64,000 nt of DNA. It comes from Escherichia phage ECML-134. Position 1 is the stretch's first letter; each line of letters starts with the position of its first letter. The stretch lies in the sequence record JX128259. One strand, given 5' to 3'. The notes below the pieces were generated by a model. The model was given only the letters and a program-made list of their open reading frames with translations, did no database searches and was not told the DNA's origin. The position numbers and the translations under genes were made by a program. Positions 2,157 through 55,342 of this stretch are shown piece after piece.

Positions 2157-3440
2157 ATGGCTAAAATCAACGAACTTCTGCGCGAATCAACAACAACGAA
2201 TAGCAACTCAATCGGTCGCCCAAATCTCGTTGCTTTGACTCGCGCTACCACTAAATTAATATATTCTGACATTGTAGCAACGCAAAGAACTAATCAACCT
2301 GTTGCTGCTTTTTATGGTATCAAATACCTTAACCCAGACAATGAATTTACATTTAAAACTGGTGCTACTTACGCTGGCGAAGCTGGATATGTAGACCGAG
2401 AACAAATCACAGAATTAACAGAAGAGTCTAAATTAACTCTCAATAAAGGCGATTTATTCAAATATAATAATATCGTTTATAAAGTATTAGAAGATACTCC
2501 ATTTGCTGATATTGAAGAAAGCGATTTAGAATTAGCTCTTCAGATTGCAATTGTTCTTTTAAAGGTTCGTCTATTTTCTGACGCAGCGTCAACAAGCAAA
2601 TTTGAAAGCTCTGATAGCGAAATTGCGGATGCTAGATTCCAGATTAATAAATGGCAAACCGCAGTTAAATCTCGTAAACTTAAAACTGGTATCACAGTTG
2701 AATTAGCACAAGATTTAGAAGCAAATGGATTCGATGCTCCTAATTTCTTGGAAGATTTGCTTGCAACTGAAATGGCGGATGAAATTAATAAAGATATTCT
2801 GCAGTCTTTGATTACAGTATCAAAACGCTATAAAGTTACAGGAATTACTGATAGTGGATTCATCGATTTGAGTTATGCATCTGCTCCTGAAGCTGGTCGT
2901 TCATTATACCGAATGGTATGTGAAATGGTTTCGCATATCCAAAAAGAATCAACTTATACAGCAACGTTCTGTGTTGCTTCAGCTCGTGCTGCTGCGATTC
3001 TTGCTGCATCAGGTTGGTTAAAACATAAACCAGAAGATGATAAATATCTTTCACAAAATGCCTACGGGTTCTTAGCTAATGGTTTACCGCTTTATTGCGA
3101 TACTAACAGCCCATTAGATTATGTAATCGTTGGCGTAGTAGAAAATATCGGTGAAAAAGAAATTGTTGGTTCAATTTTCTATGCTCCGTATACAGAAGGT
3201 CTTGACTTAGATGACCCTGAACATGTGGGTGCATTTAAAGTTGTTGTTGATCCAGAAAGCTTACAACCGTCTATCGGTTTATTAGTTAGATATGCTTTAT
3301 CAGCAAATCCTTATACTGTAGCAAAAGATGAAAAAGAAGCAAGAATAATTGACGGTGGAGACATGGATAAAATGGCAGGTCGTTCAGATTTGTCTGTTTT
3401 ATTAGGTGTTAAATTACCAAAAATTATTATTGATGAATAA
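2157..3440 (+). CDS. 24: Capsid vertex protein gp24
   Basis: 427-aa ORF, gp23 paralogue pattern, T4 position and length; TATAAATA late promoter and AGGA RBS upstream. Confidence 0.93.
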   Translation: MAKINELLRESTTTNSNSIGRPNLVALTRATTKLIYSDIVATQRTNQPVAAFYGIKYLNPDNEFTFKTGATYAGEAGYVDREQITELTEESKLTLNKGDLFKYNNIVYKVLEDTPFADIEESDLELALQIAIVLLKVRLFSDAASTSKFESSDSEIADARFQINKWQTAVKSRKLKTGITVELAQDLEANGFDAPNFLEDLLATEMADEINKDILQSLITVSKRYKVTGITDSGFIDLSYASAPEAGRSLYRMVCEMVSHIQKESTYTATFCVASARAAAILAASGWLKHKPEDDKYLSQNAYGFLANGLPLYCDTNSPLDYVIVGVVENIGEKEIVGSIFYAPYTEGLDLDDPEHVGAFKVVVDPESLQPSIGLLVRYALSANPYTVAKDEKEARIIDGGDMDKMAGRSDLSVLLGVKLPKIIIDE

Positions 3441-44988: not shown

Positions 44989-47900
44989 ATGGCCGAGATT
45001 AAAAGAAAGTTCAGAGCAGAAGATGGTCTGGACGCAGGTGGCGATAAAATAATCAACGTAGCTTTAGCTGATCGTACCGTAGGAACTGACGGTGTTAACG
45101 TTGATTACTTAATTCAAGAAAACACAGTTCAGCAATATGATCCAACTCGTGGATATTTAAAAGATTTTGTAATCATTTATAATAATCGTTTTTGGGCAGC
45201 AACGGATAATATTCCAAAACCTGCTGGAAATTTTAATAGAATTCGTTGGAAAGCATTACGTACTGATGCCGTATATACAACCGTATCATCTGGACCATAT
45301 CAATTAAAATCCGGAGAAGCAATTTCAGTAGATACATCAGTTGGCAATGACATTGAATTTACTTTACCACCTTCTCCGCTTGATGGAGAAACCGTAATAA
45401 TTCAAGATATCGGTGGAAAACCTGGCATAAATCAGGTTAAAATAAATTCTTCAAATCAGAGTATTGTCAATTTTAGAGGTGAACAGGTACGTTCAGTTTT
45501 AATGACTCATCCAAAGTCACAGATGGTATTCATTTTTAATAATCGTTTGTGGCAAATGTATATTGCTGATTATAGCAGAGAAGCTGCGATTGTTACTCCA
45601 TCGACTGCATATCAAGCACAATCTAATGATTTTATCGTACGTAGATTTACTTCTGCCGCACCGATTAATGTTAAACTTCCAAGATTTGCCAATCATGGAG
45701 ATATCATTAATTTCGTTGATTTAGATAAATTAAATCCACTTTATCATACAATTGTTACAACATATGATGAAACGACGTCAGTGCAAGAAGTTGGAACTCA
45801 TTCCATTGAAGGCCGTACATCGATTGACGGTTTCTTGATGTTTGATGATAATGAGAAATTGTGGAGATTGTTTGACGGGGATAGTAAAGCACGTTTACGC
45901 ATTATAACAACTAATTCTAATATTCGTCCAAATGAAGAAGTCATGGTATTTGGCGCGAATAACGGAACAACTCAGACAATTGAGCTTCAGCTTCCGACTG
46001 ATATTTCTGTTGGTGATACTGTTAAAATTTCCATGAATTACATGAGAAAAGGACAAACAGTTAAAATCAAAGCTGCCGGTGAAGATAAAATTGCTTCTTC
46101 AGTTCAATTGCTGCAATTCCCAAAACGTTCAGAATATCCGCCTGAAGCTGAATGGGTAACAGTTCAAGAATTAGTTTTTAACGGTGAAACTAATTATGTT
46201 CCAGTTTTACAACTTGCTTATATAGAAGATTCTGATGGAAAATACTGGGTTGTACAGCAAAACGTTCCAACTGTAGAAAGAGTAGACTCTTTAAATGCTT
46301 CTACTAGAGCAAGATTAGGCGTAATTGCTTTAGCTACGCAAGCTCAAGCAAATGCTGATTTAGAAAGTTCTCCACAAAAAGAATTGGCAATTACTCCAGA
46401 AACGTTAGCTAATCGTACTGCTACAGAAACTCGCAGAGGTATTGCAAGAATAGCAACTACTGCTCAAGTGAATCAGAACACCACATTCTCTTTTGCGGAT
46501 GACCTTATCATCACTCCTAAAAAGCTGAATGAAAGAACTGCTACAGAAACTCGTAGAGGTGTTGCTGAAATTGCTACGCAGCAGGAAACTAATACAGGTA
46601 CTGATGATACTACAATCATCACTCCTAAAAAGCTTCAAGCTCGTCAAGGTTCTGAATCATTATCTGGTATTGTAACTTTTGTATCTACGGCGAGTGCTAC
46701 TCCAGCTTCTAGTCGTGAATTAAATGGTACAAATGTTTATAATAAAAACACTAATAATTTAGTTGTTTCGCCAAAAGCACTTGATCAGTATAAAGCTACT
46801 CCAACGCAACAAGGCGCAGTAATTTTAGCAGTTGAAAGTGAAGTAATTGCTGGACAAAGCCAAGAAGGATGGGCAAATGCGGTTGTAACGCCAGAAACGT
46901 TACATAAAAAGACATCAACTGATGGAAGAATTGGTTTAATTGAAATTGCTACGCAAAGTGAAGTTAATACAGGAACTGACTATACTCGTGCAGTCACTCC
47001 TAAAACTTTAAATGACCGTAGAGCAACTGAAAGTTTAAGTGGTATAGCTGAAATTGCTACGCAAGTTGAATTCGACGCAGGCGTCGACGATACTCGTATC
47101 TCTACACCATTAAAAATTAAAACCAGATTTAATAGTACTGATCGTACTTCTGTTGCTACTCTATCTGGATTAGTTGAATCAGGAACTCTCTGGGACCATT
47201 ATACCCTTAATATTCTTGAAGCAAATGAGACACAGCGTGGTACACTTCGTGTAGCTACACAAGTTGAAGCTGCTGCAGGAACATTAGATAATGTTTTAAT
47301 AACTCCTAAAAAGCTTTTAGGTACTAAATCTACTGAAGCGCAAGAAGGTGTTATTAAAGTTGCAACTCAGTCTGAAACTGTGACTGGAACATCAGCAAAT
47401 ACTGCTGTATCTCCAAAAAATTTAAAGTGGATTGTGCAGAGTGAACCAACTTGGGCAGCAACTACTCTGATAAGAGGGTTTGTTAAAACTTCATCTGGTT
47501 CAATTACATTCGTTGGTAATGATACCGTTGGTTCAACGCAGTCATTAGAATCATATGAGAAAAATGGTTATGCAGTATCACCATATGAATTAAATCGCGT
47601 ATTAGCAAATTATTTGCCATTAAAAGCAAAAGCTGTAGATAGTAATTTATTAGATGGTCTAGATTCGCTCCAGTTCATTCGTAGGGACATTGCACAAACA
47701 GTTAATGGTTCACTAACCTTAACCCAACAAACGAATCTGAGTGCCCCTCTTGTATCATCTAGTACTGCTACATTCGGTGGATCAGTTTCAGCAAATAGTA
47801 CATTAACTATTTCTAATACTGGAACGGCAACTCGTCTGATTTTTGAGAAAGGACCTCAAACTGGAACAAACCCGGCTCAAACGATGACAGTCAGAGTGTG

Positions 47901-48858
47901 GGGAAATCAATTTAGTGGGGAATCAGACACAACACGTTCTACCGTATTTGAAGTTAGTGATGAAACGTCTAGTCATTTTTATTCTCAGCGTAATAAAGCT
48001 GGAAATATAACATTTAATATCAACGGTACAGTAACACCGATAAATGTTAATGCTTCAGGAACATTGAATGCAAATGGCGTAGCAACATTTGGTAATTCAG
48101 TCACTGCAACTGGTGAAATTATTTCTCGAAGCGCAAATGCTTTCCGTGCTATTAACGGAAATTATGGTTTCATTGTTCGCAATGATGGGTCAGTAACGAA
48201 TTTTATGCTTACTGCATCGGGTGATCAAACCGGCGGATTTAATGGATTGCGTCCTTTAGCTATTAATAATGCATCTGGCCAAGTAACGATTGGTGAAAGC
48301 TTAATCATTGCAAAAGGTGCTACTATAAGTTCAGGCGGTTTAACTGTTAACTCGAGAATTCGTTCTCAAGGTGTTAAAACATCTGATTTATATACCCGTG
48401 CGCCAACATCTGATACAGTAGGATTCTGGTCAATTGATATTAACGATTCAGCCACTTATAATCAATTCCCTGGTTATTTTAAAATGGTTGAAAAAACTAA
48501 TGAAGTGACTGGACTTCCATATTTAGAACGCGGTGAAGAAGTTAAATCTCCTGGTACATTGACTCAGTTTGGTAACACGCTTGATTCGCTTTATCAAGAT
48601 TGGATTACTTATCCAACGACTCCAGAAGCACGTACCACTCGCTGGACGCGTACATGGCAGAAAACTAAAAATTCTTGGTCAAGTTTTGTTCAGGTATTCG
48701 ATGGAGGTAATCCTCCTCAACCTTCGGATATAGGAGCAATCCCATCTGATAATGGAATAATAGGTAATCTTACTATTCGTGATTTCTTACGAATTGGTAA
48801 TGTTCGCATTATTCCTGACCCAGTGAATAAAACTGTTAAATTTGAATGGGTTGAATAA
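44989..48858 (+). CDS. 34: Long tail fibre proximal subunit gp34
   Basis: 1289 aa, T4 length; late promoter and GGAG RBS upstream; internal TPKKL repeat motifs. Confidence 0.95.
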   Translation: MAEIKRKFRAEDGLDAGGDKIINVALADRTVGTDGVNVDYLIQENTVQQYDPTRGYLKDFVIIYNNRFWAATDNIPKPAGNFNRIRWKALRTDAVYTTVSSGPYQLKSGEAISVDTSVGNDIEFTLPPSPLDGETVIIQDIGGKPGINQVKINSSNQSIVNFRGEQVRSVLMTHPKSQMVFIFNNRLWQMYIADYSREAAIVTPSTAYQAQSNDFIVRRFTSAAPINVKLPRFANHGDIINFVDLDKLNPLYHTIVTTYDETTSVQEVGTHSIEGRTSIDGFLMFDDNEKLWRLFDGDSKARLRIITTNSNIRPNEEVMVFGANNGTTQTIELQLPTDISVGDTVKISMNYMRKGQTVKIKAAGEDKIASSVQLLQFPKRSEYPPEAEWVTVQELVFNGETNYVPVLQLAYIEDSDGKYWVVQQNVPTVERVDSLNASTRARLGVIALATQAQANADLESSPQKELAITPETLANRTATETRRGIARIATTAQVNQNTTFSFADDLIITPKKLNERTATETRRGVAEIATQQETNTGTDDTTIITPKKLQARQGSESLSGIVTFVSTASATPASSRELNGTNVYNKNTNNLVVSPKALDQYKATPTQQGAVILAVESEVIAGQSQEGWANAVVTPETLHKKTSTDGRIGLIEIATQSEVNTGTDYTRAVTPKTLNDRRATESLSGIAEIATQVEFDAGVDDTRISTPLKIKTRFNSTDRTSVATLSGLVESGTLWDHYTLNILEANETQRGTLRVATQVEAAAGTLDNVLITPKKLLGTKSTEAQEGVIKVATQSETVTGTSANTAVSPKNLKWIVQSEPTWAATTLIRGFVKTSSGSITFVGNDTVGSTQSLESYEKNGYAVSPYELNRVLANYLPLKAKAVDSNLLDGLDSLQFIRRDIAQTVNGSLTLTQQTNLSAPLVSSSTATFGGSVSANSTLTISNTGTATRLIFEKGPQTGTNPAQTMTVRVWGNQFSGESDTTRSTVFEVSDETSSHFYSQRNKAGNITFNINGTVTPINVNASGTLNANGVATFGNSVTATGEIISRSANAFRAINGNYGFIVRNDGSVTNFMLTASGDQTGGFNGLRPLAINNASGQVTIGESLIIAKGATISSGGLTVNSRIRSQGVKTSDLYTRAPTSDTVGFWSIDINDSATYNQFPGYFKMVEKTNEVTGLPYLERGEEVKSPGTLTQFGNTLDSLYQDWITYPTTPEARTTRWTRTWQKTKNSWSSFVQVFDGGNPPQPSDIGAIPSDNGIIGNLTIRDFLRIGNVRIIPDPVNKTVKFEWVE

Positions 48859-48866
48859 GAGGTATT

Positions 48867-49982
48867 ATGGAAAAATTTATGGCAGAGTTTGGACAAGGAT
48901 ATGTCCAAACGCCATTTTTATCGGAAAGCAATTCAGTAAGATATAAAATAAGCATAGCGGGTTCTTGCCCGCTTTCTACTGCGGGACCATATGTTAAATT
49001 TCAGGATAATCCCGTTGGAAATCAAACATTTAGTGCAGGTCTTCATTTAAGAGTTTTTGACCCTTCTACGGGAGCATTAGTTGATAGTAAGTCATATGCT
49101 TTTTCTGCTTCAAACAATACAACATCTGCCGCTTTTGTCAGTTTCATGAATTCTTTGTCAAACAATAAACTTGTTGCTATATTAACTAGCGGAAAGGTTA
49201 ATTTTCCTCCTGAAGTGGTATCTTGGTTAAGGGAAGCAGGAACTTCAGTTTTTCCATCAGATTCCGTATTGTCAAGATTTGACGTATCATATGCTGCTTT
49301 TTACACTTCTTCTAAAAGAGCTATCGCATTAGAGCATGTTAAACTAAGTAATAGAAAAAGCACAGATGACTATCAAACTATGTTAGATGTTGTATTTGAT
49401 AGTTTAGAAGACGTTGGAGCGACAGGATTTCCAAAAAGAACTTATGAAAGCGTTGAACAATTTATGTCTGCGGTTGGAGGAACTAATAATGAAATTGCGC
49501 GATTGCCAACTTCAGCTGCTATAAGTAAACTTTCTGACTACAATTTAATTCCTGGTGATGTTCTTTATCTTAAAGCACAGTTATATGCTGATGCTGATTT
49601 ACTTGATCTTGGAACTACAAACATATCCATTCGTTTTTATGATGCATCAAATGGATATATTTCCTCTACCCAAGCTGAGTTTACTGGGCAAGCTGGGTCT
49701 TGGGAATTAAAGGAAGATTATGTAGTTGTTCCTGAAAATGCAGTCGGATTTACTATATATGCACAGAGAACTGCTCAAGCTGGTCAAGGCGGAATGAGGA
49801 ATTTAAGCTTTTCTGAAGTATCAAGAAATGGCGGCATTTCAAAACCTGCCGAATTTGGCGTCAATGGTATTCGTGTTAATTATATCGGTGAATCCTCTTC
49901 ACCTCCAGATATAATGGTACTTCCTACACAGGCATCGTCTAAAACTGGTAAAGTGTTTGGACAGGAATTTAGAGAAGTTTAA
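48867..49982 (+). CDS. 35: Long tail fibre hinge connector gp35
   Basis: 371 aa, T4 position. Confidence 0.9.
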   Translation: MEKFMAEFGQGYVQTPFLSESNSVRYKISIAGSCPLSTAGPYVKFQDNPVGNQTFSAGLHLRVFDPSTGALVDSKSYAFSASNNTTSAAFVSFMNSLSNNKLVAILTSGKVNFPPEVVSWLREAGTSVFPSDSVLSRFDVSYAAFYTSSKRAIALEHVKLSNRKSTDDYQTMLDVVFDSLEDVGATGFPKRTYESVEQFMSAVGGTNNEIARLPTSAAISKLSDYNLIPGDVLYLKAQLYADADLLDLGTTNISIRFYDASNGYISSTQAEFTGQAGSWELKEDYVVVPENAVGFTIYAQRTAQAGQGGMRNLSFSEVSRNGGISKPAEFGVNGIRVNYIGESSSPPDIMVLPTQASSKTGKVFGQEFREV

Positions 49983-50044: not shown

Positions 50045-50734
50045 ATGGCTGATTTAAAAGTAGGTTCAACTGTGGGTGGATCTGTCATTTGGCATCAAGG
50101 AAATTTTCCATTGAATTCAGCCGGTGACGATGTACTCTACAAATCATTTAAAATATATTCAGAATATAATAAACCGCAGGCAGCTGATAACGATTTCGTT
50201 TCTAAAGCTAATGGTGGCACAAAGTCTAGAGGTTTCCAAAAAGAAGTAGAATTTAAAGAAGGCGTTAAGATTTCTGCGACGTTTTCTGGTGGTTCAGACC
50301 TGAATGGGTTATATTCTGGCAATGGAGATGGAGCTTCCAGAGAAAAAGCTAACATGGATTTACATTCATGGTACGGCATTGGTATTTGGAATACATGCAC
50401 AGGTGATGGGGTCCAGGGACGCACAATCTGGTTTAATGCCAGGCGTGGTACAATTGAAACAGTTGGCGATATTGTTTCAGGCCGACAAGTTATTTCTAAT
50501 GCTTCAGTACCGACCGGCCCAGCACACTTAACTCGCAAAGATTATGTCGATGGAGCAATAAATACTGTTACGACAAATGCAAACTCTAGAGTGTTACGAT
50601 CTGGTGACACTATGACAGGTAATTTAACAGCACCAAACTTTTTCTCGCAGAATCCTGCATCTCAACCCTCACATGTTCCACGATTTGACCAAATCGTGAT
50701 TAAGGATTCTGTTCAAGATTTCGGCTATTATTAA
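50045..50734 (+). CDS. 36: Long tail fibre distal connector gp36
   Basis: 229 aa; late promoter upstream. Confidence 0.9.
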
Positions 50735-50742
50735 GAGGACTT

Positions 50743-53700
50743 ATGGCTACTTTAAAACAAATACAATTTAAAAGAAGCAAAACTGCAGGTCAACTTCCTG
50801 CTGCTTCAGTATTAGCCGAAGGTGAATTGGCTATTAATTTAAAAGATAAAACAATTTTCACAAAAGATGACTCAGGCAATGTTATAGAATTAGGTTTAAA
50901 ATATGGAGGAACAATTGATGGTTCTTTAACTGTTAATGGAAATATAATTGGAAATTTAACAGGTAACGCTGCAACTGCAACGAAATTAAAAACAGCACGA
51001 AAAATTAATGGTATATCCTTTGATGGGTCAAAAGATATCACGCTAACTCCATCTGACATAAATGTCAATAGCACAACGTTTATAAAAAATAACGGCGAAT
51101 TACCTGTTGACGCTAATTTAGATGAATATGGGCCCACTGAAGAGTATCTTGGCGTTTGGTCGAAATCTACTTCAACAAATGCGCAACCGGCAAATAAATT
51201 CCCAGAAGAAAATGCCGTAGGTGTACTAGAAGTATTTGTGGCCGGTCAATTTGCTGGTACTCAGAGATATACTGTAAGATCTGGTAACGTATATGTTCGA
51301 TCTTTGTCTGCTAAATGGAACGGTGTTAACGGTCCGTGGGGAGTTTGGCGTAATGTTCAAGCGTCAACTCGTCCACTTTCACAAACGATTGACCTTGATA
51401 GCTTGGGAGAATTAGAACATTGCGGCTTATGGCGAAATAGTTCAAGTTCTATCGCATCGTTTGACCGTCATTATCCAGAAGAAGGAGCAGCCGCACAAGG
51501 ATTTTTGGAAATTTTTGAGGGTGGTTTATACACAAGAACTCAACGTTATACAACTAGATTTGGTGTTGTTTATACTCGCTGTCTTGCTGCTGCATGGGAT
51601 GCATCTGCGCCTAAATGGGGACCGTGGCAACAAGTCGGTAATGTCACACCGGCGACTTTCTATGACGGAGACCTGAATGATTTTAAAGCTCCTGGGTTAT
51701 ATAACATTTTAGGCACTGATGCCGTTATTAACTGTCCTACAGGTGAAGGTTTGCCGACTGTTATTGTTGGTTTGCTGGAAGTTAAACAGCGTGCTTCTGG
51801 CGGTGCTATTTTCCAAAAATTTACTACTGCCGGAACGGCTTCAACTACTCGCGATCGTATTTTTGAGCGTGCATATACTGGTGGTGCGTGGGGTGCATGG
51901 AACGAAGTATATACATCTTATTCTCTGCCAATTACTTTGGGTATGGGTGGTATTAAAGCTCAATTAGCGGAGTTAGATTGGCAAACCTTTGATTTTGTCC
52001 CTGGTAGTATGTTTAGTGTTCCTTTGAACAAAATAAAGAATATGCCAGCAAATATGGATTGGGGCACGATTGATGGAAACCTGGTTATGTTTTCCGTTGG
52101 TCCTAGCGAACGCACTAGCACAGGACGTACTGTTCAGATTTGGCGCGGCACCGTATCCCAGACAAACTACCGTTATTTTGTCGTTCGTGTGTTCGGTAAT
52201 TCTGGAAATAGAACTTGCACAGTTCGTCGTGTTGTTCTTGAAGATGGTCGCCACACATGGACAGCTCAACAAGATTTTAATGGCGCAGTTAACTTTAACT
52301 CTACTGTTAACCTTAATAACACTACCACATTTAAAACAGAAGTTAAATTTCGCTCATTGAATGCATTCCGTATGTATGGCGGAAAATTTGGTACATTTTT
52401 ACGTAATGATGGAGAGAGTCTTTATATTCTTTCCACCGACGAAGATGATCAACATGGAAACTTTAATACAAATAGACCTTTCCGTTATGAATTAAGAACT
52501 GGTGATGTTACTTTGGGTGGTGCTAGTGGTGCTAACGTTTTAAAATTAAAACGTGATTCTCTCACCGCATTTTTTGGTGGTGATATTAACATGAAAGGCA
52601 CGATGACTTTTGACGCCGGACGTTTAGGATCACGAGATTATTTTAAATTTAACCATTGGGGTGATAGTAATAATGCTCGTGATAACATTATTCAGTTAGA
52701 AGATAGCAAAGGCGTTCATTTTTCCACTGAACGTACTTTAGCGACTGGTGCAATTAAAACTAGATTCTTTGGCGAAACATTCACTGACGGGACATTATAC
52801 CTAAATCAGATGAATAATAGTTCTGAACGATTCTCTATCAACAATTGGGGAAGTTCAGAAGTTGGTCGCGCGGCAGTATTGGAAGTCGGCGATTCCAAAG
52901 GTTATCACTTCTATACGGAACGTAGAACAGATGACACCGTTTTATTTTCTGTAGCTGGTGCTTTGACCGTGCGTGGACCTAACGGAATAACCATCAAAAA
53001 CTCAACTGGTGCACGCCATATCTGGTTTAGAGATGACAGCGAATCGGAAAAGGCTGTTATTTGGGCGACCGATGAGGGTATTTTACATATTCGCAATAAC
53101 AACGGTGGACAATTTAGTCATCACTTCCAGGGCGCAATGATTAAACTGGAAGGGCGTGTTCCTTATGATGCAACAAAGGGGATTATCCGTGGTGAAGTTG
53201 ATGGTGGTGCATATGTTGCATGGAGAGACCGCCCTGCTGGTTTGTTGGTTGACTGCCAGAAAAGTATTGACAGTGCTCATGCTGTTTGGAAAGCGGTTGA
53301 TTGGGGGCGTCAATATATCGCTGCTATGGACGTTCACTGTCCGGGTGATGGTAATAATACTGCGACAGCGATTCTTCATGTTCAGGCTGCTGATTATCAA
53401 TTCCACGCAAGCGGAGAATTCGTTACCAGTGGTAACGGAAACTTTAACGATGTGTATATTCGTTCTGACCGTCGTCTGAAAATTAATGTTGAAGATTATA
53501 CCGGAAATGCGTTAAGTTTGATTGGTAAGCTGAAAGTGAAAACTTACGATAAAGTTAAATCTCTTAAGGACCGTGAAATTATCGGTCATGAGATTGGCAT
53601 TATCGCACAGGATTTACAAGAAATATTACCGGAAGCGGTGAAATCTTCAAAAGTTGGCAATCTTGATAATCCAGACGATGTTCTGACAATTTCTAACTCG

Positions 53701-53817
53701 GCAGTGAATGCTCTTTTAATTAAGGCTATTCAGGAAATGAGTGAAGAAATTAAAGAATTGAAAACTCCTTTCTTTACTAAAATTGCTCGCAAAATTAGTA
53801 AATATTTTAAATTCTAA
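50743..53817 (+). CDS. 37: Long tail fibre distal subunit gp37 (T2/T6-type, with C-terminal chaperone-like module)
   Basis: 1024 aa; N-terminus [13 protein letters not shown]... conserved with T4 gp37; no His-rich T4-type tip; C-terminal ...[21 protein letters not shown]... Confidence 0.92.
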
Positions 53818-53822
53818 CAACA

Positions 53823-53843
53823 AGGGGGCAACGCCCCCCTTTG
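53823..53843 (+). terminator. Hairpin after gene 37 (weak T-run)
   Basis: GGGGGC-AAC-GCCCCCC then TTTGG. Confidence 0.5.
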
Positions 53844-53854
53844 GAGTATAAATT

Positions 53855-54655
53855 ATGGCAGTAGTTGGTGTTCCTGGTTGGATTGGAAGTTCAGCCGCAA
53901 ATGAAACAGGACAAAGATGGATGAGTCAAGCGGCTGGACAATTAAGATTGGGTGTTCCTTGCTGGATGAGTCAATTTGCAGGTCGCTCGCGAGAAATTAT
54001 TCATACTGTAGGAGCAAACCACAATTTTAATGGTCAGTGGTTCCGTGATAGATGCTTTGAAGCTGGCGGTGCACCTATTGTATTCAATATTGTTGGTGAT
54101 ATCGTTTCTTATTCTAAAGATGTACCGCTTTTCTTTATGTATGGTGACACTCCTAACGAATACGTTGTCCTTAATATTCATGGTGGTGTCCATATGTGGG
54201 GTCGAGGTGGTAATGGTGGATACACTCACTCAGGTGGAGATGGTAACGGTACACAAGGCGGTCATGTTATTCAAAATGATATCGGTGGACGGCTTCGTAT
54301 TTGGAACTACGGTGTTATAGCTGCTGGCGGTGGTGGCGGTGGTGGTATTGCATATCGTCCACACTCAGGGGCAAACTGGCAAGATATCGGTGGCGGTGGC
54401 GGTCGACCTTTCGGTGGTGCTGGCGGTGGCGGTTATTCCGGTGGTGCTGCTTCTTATGAAGGTCCGGGTGGTGGTTACAACTATGGTAACGCACACTCCG
54501 GCGCGGGTGGTAATGCTGGCGCTGCTGGTCAGAATGCATGGTCTGATGGCGGTAAAGTTCTTAAAGTTGGTGTTGGTGGTGCTTCTGGTCATGCCGTGTT
54601 TGGATCTTCTCCAACGTGGCAAAACGTTGGAATAATATATGGTCCAAGAGTATAA
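53855..54655 (+). CDS. 38: gp38 receptor-recognising adhesin (T2/K3-type, glycine-rich)
   Basis: 266 aa with conserved Gly-rich tracts (GGGGGGG, GGGGG) separating variable segments. Confidence 0.85.
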
Positions 54656-54685: not shown

Positions 54686-55342
54686 ATGGCAGCACCTAGA
54701 ATATCATTTTCACCCTCTGATATTCTATTTGGTGTTCTAGATCGCTTGTTCAAAGATAACGCTACCGGGAAAGTTCTTGCTTCCCGAGTAGCTGTCGTAA
54801 TTCTTTTATTTATGATGGCGATTGTTTGGTATAGGGGAGATAGTTTCTTTGAGTACTATAAGCAATCAAAGTATGAAACATACCGTGAAATTATTGAAAA
54901 GGAAAGAAATGCACGCTTTGAATCTGTCGCCCTGGAACAACTCCAGATAGTTCATATATCATCTGAGGCAGACTTTAGTGCGGTGTATTCTTTCCGCCCT
55001 AAAAACTTAAACTATTTTGTTGATATTATAGCATATGAAGGAAAATTACCTTCAACAATAAGTGAAAAATCACTTGGAGGATATCCTGTTGATAAAACTA
55101 TGGATGAATATACAGTTCATTTAAATGGACGTCATTATTATTCCAATTCAAAATTTGCTTTTTTACCAACTAAAAAGCCTACTCCCGAAATAAACTACAT
55201 GTACAGTTGTCCATATTTTAATTTGGATAATATCTATGCTGGAACGATAACCATGTACTGGTATAGAAATGATCATATAAGTAATGACCGCCTTGAATCA
55301 ATATGTTCTCAGGCGGCCAGAATATTAGGAAGGGCTAAATAA
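54686..55342 (+). CDS. t: Holin T
   Basis: 218 aa; single N-terminal TM helix and large periplasmic domain; T4 length. Confidence 0.93.
   Translation: MAAPRISFSPSDILFGVLDRLFKDNATGKVLASRVAVVILLFMMAIVWYRGDSFFEYYKQSKYETYREIIEKERNARFESVALEQLQIVHISSEADFSAVYSFRPKNLNYFVDIIAYEGKLPSTISEKSLGGYPVDKTMDEYTVHLNGRHYYSNSKFAFLPTKKPTPEINYMYSCPYFNLDNIYAGTITMYWYRNDHISNDRLESICSQAARILGRAK

Follow-up and report, generated by a model that had tools for sequence, protein, structure and literature searches.

Organisation of the long-tail-fibre locus

The window, a stretch of 64,000 nucleotides from Escherichia phage ECML-134 (sequence record JX128259), includes the long-tail-fibre operon of a T-even phage and, downstream of gene 38, the holin gene t:

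44989-48858: gp34, long-tail-fibre operon
48867-49982: gp35, long-tail-fibre operon
50045-50734: gp36, long-tail-fibre operon
50743..53817, + strand: gene 37, precursor of the distal subunit of the long tail fibre (1024 aa, 112.6 kDa; from the list of open reading frames, stop codon included)
53855..54655, + strand: gene 38, T2-type tail fibre adhesin (266 aa; Pfam GP38 and Gp38_N)
54686-55342: holin t, downstream of g38

The order 34-35-36-37-38-t is common to the window, T2, S16 and T4. Gp37 matches PHROG 1699 ('long tail fiber protein distal subunit') with E 9.5e-178, and no family match was obtained for it in NCBIfam. At the DNA level, g37-g38 shares 99.8% identity with Escherichia phage vB_EcoM_SCS4 and matches 620 phage records, nearly all of them Tequatrovirus-like.

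Two overlapping open reading frames inside g37 (53083-53406 on the - strand and 53156-53479 on the + strand) are unsupported as genes. Some stretches of gp37 look alike by eye; the idea that they are repeats was dropped, as self-BLASTP at E <= 1e-3 revealed no internal repeat. The terminator scan of the g37-g38 interval was empty, and the GC hairpin located between the two genes folds no better than shuffled sequences (z -0.98).

A Peptidase_S74 module at the C-terminus of gp37

The motif SDRRLK occupies aa 908-913 of gp37 and marks the start of a match to the Pfam family Peptidase_S74 (PF13884, 'chaperone of endosialidase') over aa 908-967. The whole model is covered (positions 1-58/58) with E 3.2e-14 and 53.4 bits, above the curated gathering cut-off of 22 bits. 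The sequence-only reading had placed a chaperone-autoprotease module in the last ~120 residues of gp37, and was to be given up if no homology to this family could be detected. The match is clear; Pfam, the profile search leading to S16 gp37 (PDB 6F45) and Foldseek agree on the module, which measures 117 aa and sits at the extreme C-terminus (aa 908-1024 of 1024). The peptide ending in EEIKELK, which had been quoted as the end of gp37, is present but is followed by 17 more residues.

The same library was used to scan proteins of known type. Position 1 of the S74 model falls on Ser1264 in T5 pb1 (35.9 bits), on Ser1243 in T2 gp37 (56.5 bits) and on Ser638 in S16 gp37 (44.9 bits). For endoNF of phage K1F (36.3 bits), the aligned part begins with model position 6 at Lys916; position 1 extrapolates to Ser911, and the End_tail_spike domain of this protein ends at residue 910. 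The score of gp37 exceeds those of endoNF and T5 pb1. No S74 match was found in T4 gp37, where Collar and Phage_fiber domains were detected instead.

In an alignment of 36 homologues, Ser908, Asp909, Leu912 and Lys913 are invariant; these homologues are all short or partial proteins, adequate for the alignment and telling little about full-length diversity. The earlier description of a serine in an S-D-x-x-x-K context thus holds, and its location of Ser908-Asp909 at nt 53464-53469 is exact. Lys913 lies five residues after Ser908, at the module start. The same spacing is seen in endoNF between Ser911 and Lys916 (TSNGERK), which form a documented catalytic dyad (PMC8326128).

The profile derived from the alignment covers aa 908-1008 of gp37. 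An HMM built from the module columns of the 36-homologue alignment matched T2 gp37 and S16 gp37; it gave no match to T5 pb1 or endoNF and, as expected, none to T4 gp37. For T5 pb1 and endoNF, the founders of the family, the link therefore comes from the Pfam model and from the fold match described below. Among the PHROG families, 24 of tail fibres or spikes have an extreme C-terminus that is matched by the predicted released fragment, and a tblastn search with aa 868-1024 of gp37 matched 1158 phage records, ranging from T-even fibres to streptococcal PblB and hyaluronidases.

Predicted fold of the module

A single-sequence search of solved structures retrieved S16 gp37 (6F45), a tail fibre (8JOV) and the ICA domain of MyRF (7DC3). 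With a profile, 6F45, the best PDB sequence match of gp37, rose to E 1.2e-15 and the GA-1 neck appendage chaperone (3GUD) was added. An AlphaFold2 monomer model of aa 868-1024 has a mean pLDDT of 81.8, with 86-96 over the module, and displays paired strands and, after them, a C-terminal helix of 37 residues (DSSP, model residues 118-154), that is, the beta-hairpin 'tentacles' and long C-terminal helix of the chaperone fold. Confidence is low near the cut site (pLDDT ~54, model residues 31-40), so that no reading was drawn from the geometry of this site. The prediction also shows a single chain, whereas the domain functions as an interdigitated trimer. By analogy with MyRF and endoNF (PMC8326128), the long helix is expected to form a trimeric coiled coil.

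Foldseek searches of the PDB with this model gave three significant matches, 7DC3 (E 1e-6, TM 0.57-0.64), 3GW6 (the endoNF CIMCD) and 3GUD, with probabilities of 0.99-1.0; the remaining matches had E 0.5 or worse and low probability. One could suppose that the S74 likeness is a chance or low-complexity match and that the C-terminus is an ordinary end of the fibre shaft. Nothing was found in its favour, and it is already refuted by the Pfam match over the entire model and by the profile match to 6F45. The predicted fold moreover matches chaperone domains only, and the homologous C-terminal region recurs in the 1158 phage records. We give this explanation practically no probability.

Predicted cleavage site and products

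The features predicted around the module start are as follows:

50743..53463, + strand: predicted mature gp37 (aa 1-907, 99.5 kDa), from the S74 position and by analogy with the S16 and T5 cuts
53431..53463, + strand: conserved last strand, predicted new C-terminus and gp38 docking platform (...NFNDVYIR, aa 897-907)
53461..53466, + strand: predicted scissile bond Arg907/Ser908, S74 model position 1 being on Ser908
53464-53466, + strand: Ser908, predicted nucleophile, invariant in 36 sequences
53479..53481, + strand: Lys913, predicted general base of the Ser-Lys dyad, invariant; dyad role from PMC8326128
53464..53814, + strand: predicted released chaperone fragment (aa 908-1024, 117 aa, 13.2 kDa, pI 9.1)
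53695..53805, + strand: long C-terminal helix of the module (aa 985-1021, DSSP on the AlphaFold2 model)
53764..53814, + strand: cationic amphipathic tail within the released fragment (aa 1008-1024)

Residues 897-907 are conserved in the 36-homologue alignment and form the only pre-cleavage stretch conserved with phages fPS-90 and Paracelsus; elsewhere, the tip domains of these phages show no relationship to that of gp37. In the fPS phages, a cut was predicted in 2021 at DVYIR^SDGRLKI, and a docking role was assigned to DVYIR (PMC7917993).

Two related proteins indicate on which side of the serine the chain would be cut. S16 gp37 autocleaves at DLNVS^SDRRIKK, exposing the gp38 docking surface (PMC7917993). 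T5 pb1, a protein of 1396 residues, loses its C-terminal 133, and Ser1264 is responsible for autoproteolysis (PMC4690869); the released fragment starts at this same Ser1264. Since both cuts are N-terminal to the serine, the bond predicted in gp37 is Arg907/Ser908, and Ser908 would leave with the 117-aa fragment.

This differs from the sequence-only reading, which had the chain cut after the serine, between Ser908 and Asp909, and a mature protein of about 908 aa. A cut at that place, in an S74 module otherwise as described, has as its sole support the statement in that reading that such domains cleave after a serine. According to PMC7917993, the S16 cut falls between two serines, before that of the motif; the T5 pb1 fragment begins with its serine; and in endoNF the End_tail_spike domain stops immediately before Ser911. 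We consider a cut after Ser908 highly improbable. The idea of a processed gp37 is retained with Arg907/Ser908 as the predicted bond, and the predicted mature length becomes 907 aa, one residue less.

The gp38 adhesin and the type of fibre tip

Directly downstream of g37, gene 38 encodes a protein with the Pfam GP38 adhesin domain (E 1.6e-66) and the attachment domain Gp38_N (E 1.5e-19), an arrangement characteristic of T2-type tips, whose gp38 adhesins have glycine-rich motifs. Trp9, Trp22 and Trp37 in its N-terminal part align with tryptophans of T2 and S16 gp38. In S16, the gp38 tryptophans insert into pockets of the processed gp37 end (PMC7917993). The proposal that gp38 docks on the processed tip of gp37 is in line with the adjoining T2-type gp38, its conserved tryptophans and the docking known in S16, and we regard such docking as probable by analogy.

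The features of a T4-type tip, repeated HxH motifs together with Collar and Phage_fiber domains, were not found in gp37. The HxH iron-binding motif does not occur in it, against eight occurrences in T4 gp37, seven of them in aa 883-998; the lack of a T4-type His-rich tip, pointed out earlier from the letters, is thus borne out. Nor did the Pfam scan of gp37 detect Collar or Phage_fiber, both of which match T4 gp37. Judged from these sequence features, the gp37 tip is of T2 type and not of T4 type.

One could also imagine that the module remains attached to the fibre and serves as a structural cap, or that another protease, of phage or host, takes it off. The 1986 work on T2, cited in PMC3157838, leaves room for this, as it established processing and not the protease. 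Against either version, the serine and lysine of the dyad are invariant and the S74 score of gp37 lies above those of proven self-cleaving members. A retained module would furthermore block the surface needed by gp38, to judge from the S16 structure as described in PMC7917993, and S16 gp37 is reported to autocleave. We hold a retained or externally cut module to be very unlikely, and self-cleavage followed by gp38 capping is preferred.

Comparison with known systems

The closest solved relative is S16 (PDB 6F45; Dunne et al. 2018, via PMC7917993). Its gp37 likewise ends in an S74 module that starts at S-D-R-R-[IL]-K, and downstream of its g37 lies a gene for a gp38 adhesin in which the N-terminal tryptophans are conserved. 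S16 differs in belonging to the genus Gelderlandvirus and in having a shorter gp37 (749 aa), another tip domain, DLNVS instead of DVYIR before the cut, and a module of 112 aa with another C-terminal tail.

T2 gp37 carries a C-terminal S74 module after NVYIR/SDIRLK (Ser1243), and a gp38 adhesin is encoded downstream. Processing of the T2 gp37 precursor was reported by Drexler, Riede & Henning in 1986 and restated for T2 and T6 in PMC3157838; the results of this work and of Dunne et al. are taken here from PMC7917993, PMC7289586 and PMC3157838. The T2 protein is longer (1341 aa), with other shaft and tip sequences, whereas its module is shorter (99 aa), ends in ...KELESKLM and is without the basic amphipathic tail. 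K3 gp37 is of the same kind as that of T2 and also does not carry the 17-residue tail.

EndoNF (3GW6) and T5 pb1 (4UW8) share with gp37 the Pfam family, a Ser-Lys dyad of the same spacing and the C-terminal placement, and the predicted fold of gp37 matches 3GW6 as well as 3GUD. They are nevertheless distant in sequence, with longer modules (154 and 133 aa, respectively) containing long insertions. Their clients are also different, a sialidase beta-propeller and stalk in endoNF and a bullet-shaped domain in T5, and their processed ends carry no separate adhesin cap. In endoNF, the upstream residue Arg897 helps to trigger cleavage (PMC8326128); no equivalent sensor residue was identified in gp37.

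T4 gp37 has the same gene position, the distal half-fibre role and a Gp34_trimer-like domain in common with the gp37 described here. It differs by having no S74 module and by its Collar and Phage_fiber domains and eight HxH motifs. It folds with the help of a separate gp38 chaperone that is absent from the virion (PMC9608196).

The fPS phages are Tequatrovirus members too, and the junction DVYIR/SD(G/R)RLKI is common to them and the window (PMC7917993). Likeness to fPS-90 and to Paracelsus is unevenly distributed along g37. Upstream of ~aa 885, the tip domain is unrelated (~40% nucleotide identity). Nucleotide identity is no higher than 60-65% in the first two thirds of the module, but nearly complete in the final 42 codons of g37 and at the beginning of g38.

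A conserved DNA block and a cationic tail

On the coordinates of the window, DNA upstream of ~53393 is unrelated to that of fPS-90 and Paracelsus (~40%), positions 53393-53689 show 60-65% identity, and the block 53690-54110 mostly 92-97%. In 60-nt windows, this block is 83-97% identical to fPS-90; for Paracelsus, identity falls to ~75% beyond 54050. The block takes in the final 42 codons of g37, then the spacer and approximately the first 85 codons of g38, and the near-identical DNA therefore corresponds to the part of gp37 predicted to be discarded together with the gp38 attachment domain. The simplest reading of the block is that of a recombination linker for adhesin swapping.

In 223 phage records, the last 24 residues of gp37 recur with an identity of 90% or more, although the rest of the module drifts to ~62%. 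The 17-residue tail at aa 1008-1024 is strongly amphipathic, with a net charge of +5 and a muH of 0.64, a value reached by 33 of 5000 shuffles, and is highly conserved in one gp37 subtype. It is conceivable that the released 13-kDa fragment has a role beyond folding, in which the tail would bind a membrane or an assembly factor or would time gp38 loading; we regard this as a long shot, as the conserved DNA block accounts for the pattern more simply.

Proposed maturation of gp37

Taken together, these results make it highly probable that gp37 is a precursor with a C-terminal S74 intramolecular chaperone (Ser908-Phe1024), which cuts itself off at Arg907-Ser908 and leaves an end capped by gp38. 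What was observed here is that gp37 belongs to the family by sequence, that its dyad is conserved, that the predicted fold of the module is that of the chaperones, that the gene neighbourhood is of T2 type and that tip features of the T4 type are missing. Chaperone function, autocleavage, the exact bond and gp38 docking we infer by analogy with relatives.

In the pathway that we propose, gp37 would first exist as a precursor of 1024 aa in which the chaperone domain makes up the final 117 residues. Contacts between the C-terminal helices would bring three modules together and fix the register of the chains, and the resulting chaperone trimer would drive the trimeric tip of the fibre into its beta-structured fold. 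When folding of the tip is complete, each chain would be cut between Arg907 and Ser908 by its Ser908-Lys913 dyad; the chaperone trimer would then leave, and gp38 would cap the exposed gp37 end.

Implications

The elements of this pathway are already known. The S74 module, the Ser-Lys mechanism, the processing of T2-type gp37 and the docking of gp38 on the processed end have all been published; the complex of the S16 gp37 chaperone with gp38 has been solved (6F45), and the DVYIR/SD junction was interpreted in 2021 (PMC7917993). The analysis brings no new biology, and its value lies mainly in correct annotation and in engineering. Constructs in which the receptor-binding tip is expressed or swapped would have to keep aa 908-1024 for gp37 to fold, and engineers should expect a mature gp37 predicted to end at Arg907. 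The gp38 chosen as its partner should have an N-terminal domain suited to the ...NFNDVYIR platform.

A conserved block between variable tip sequences

DNA comparison of the end of g37, the gene for the distal subunit of the long tail fibre (gp37, 1024 aa), and the start of the adhesin gene g38 with two relatives, fPS-90 and Paracelsus, delimited a conserved block, listed here with its neighbouring features (window coordinates; both genes on the + strand).

Gp37 and gp38 features around the conserved block
52297-52485: Gp34_trimer domain (Pfam, E 1.3e-13), gp37 aa 519-581
52650-53400: gp37 tip domain, aa ~640-885, preceding a conserved 11-residue strand
53690-54110: conserved DNA block, running from the last 42 g37 codons through the spacer into g38 (its first ~85 codons)
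53764-53814: C-terminal tail of gp37, aa 1008-1024
53824-53839: spacer hairpin, GC-rich (GGGGGC aac GCCCCC), downstream of the g37 stop codon and ahead of the ribosome-binding site of g38
54170-54655: C-terminal part of gp38

Upstream of ~53393, the tip of gp37 is unrelated in DNA sequence to its counterparts in fPS-90 and Paracelsus. The block itself is 83-97% identical to fPS-90 per 60-nt window, and identity to Paracelsus is ~75% past 54050; the remaining part of the chaperone module (the Peptidase_S74 end of gp37) shows only 60-65% identity to the two relatives. The block looks like a conserved recombination linker. Most of it shows 92-97% identity to these relatives. Its g37 share encodes, according to the predicted cleavage, part of the cut-off fragment.

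Gp37 domains and C-terminal tail

The tip domain is common to other, partial database proteins, as shown by an alignment of homologues (IRG..GG.W..WRDR.AG..VDC...). Two 11-residue stretches in it look alike to the eye; self-BLASTP detected no significant repeat. The internal Gp34_trimer domain, which takes its name from the proximal fibre subunit, is likewise present in T2 and T4 gp37.

In 223 phage records, the final 24 residues of gp37 show 90% identity or more. The 17-residue tail is strongly amphipathic, with a muH of 0.64 that 33 of 5000 shuffles attain, and its net charge is +5. T2 and K3 gp37 lack this tail and terminate in ...KELESKLM.

Spacer hairpin and variable end of gp38

The spacer hairpin was not called in a terminator scan and its stability did not exceed that of shuffled sequences (z -0.98). 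An analogous stem-loop is annotated as a potential terminator in the K3 record X04747.

In close relatives such as U115 and SHFML-26, all of g37 was matched and the match ended inside g38, at about query position 3424 (window ~54166). This end point is consistent with an independent exchange of the hypervariable receptor-binding loops of the gp38 adhesin.
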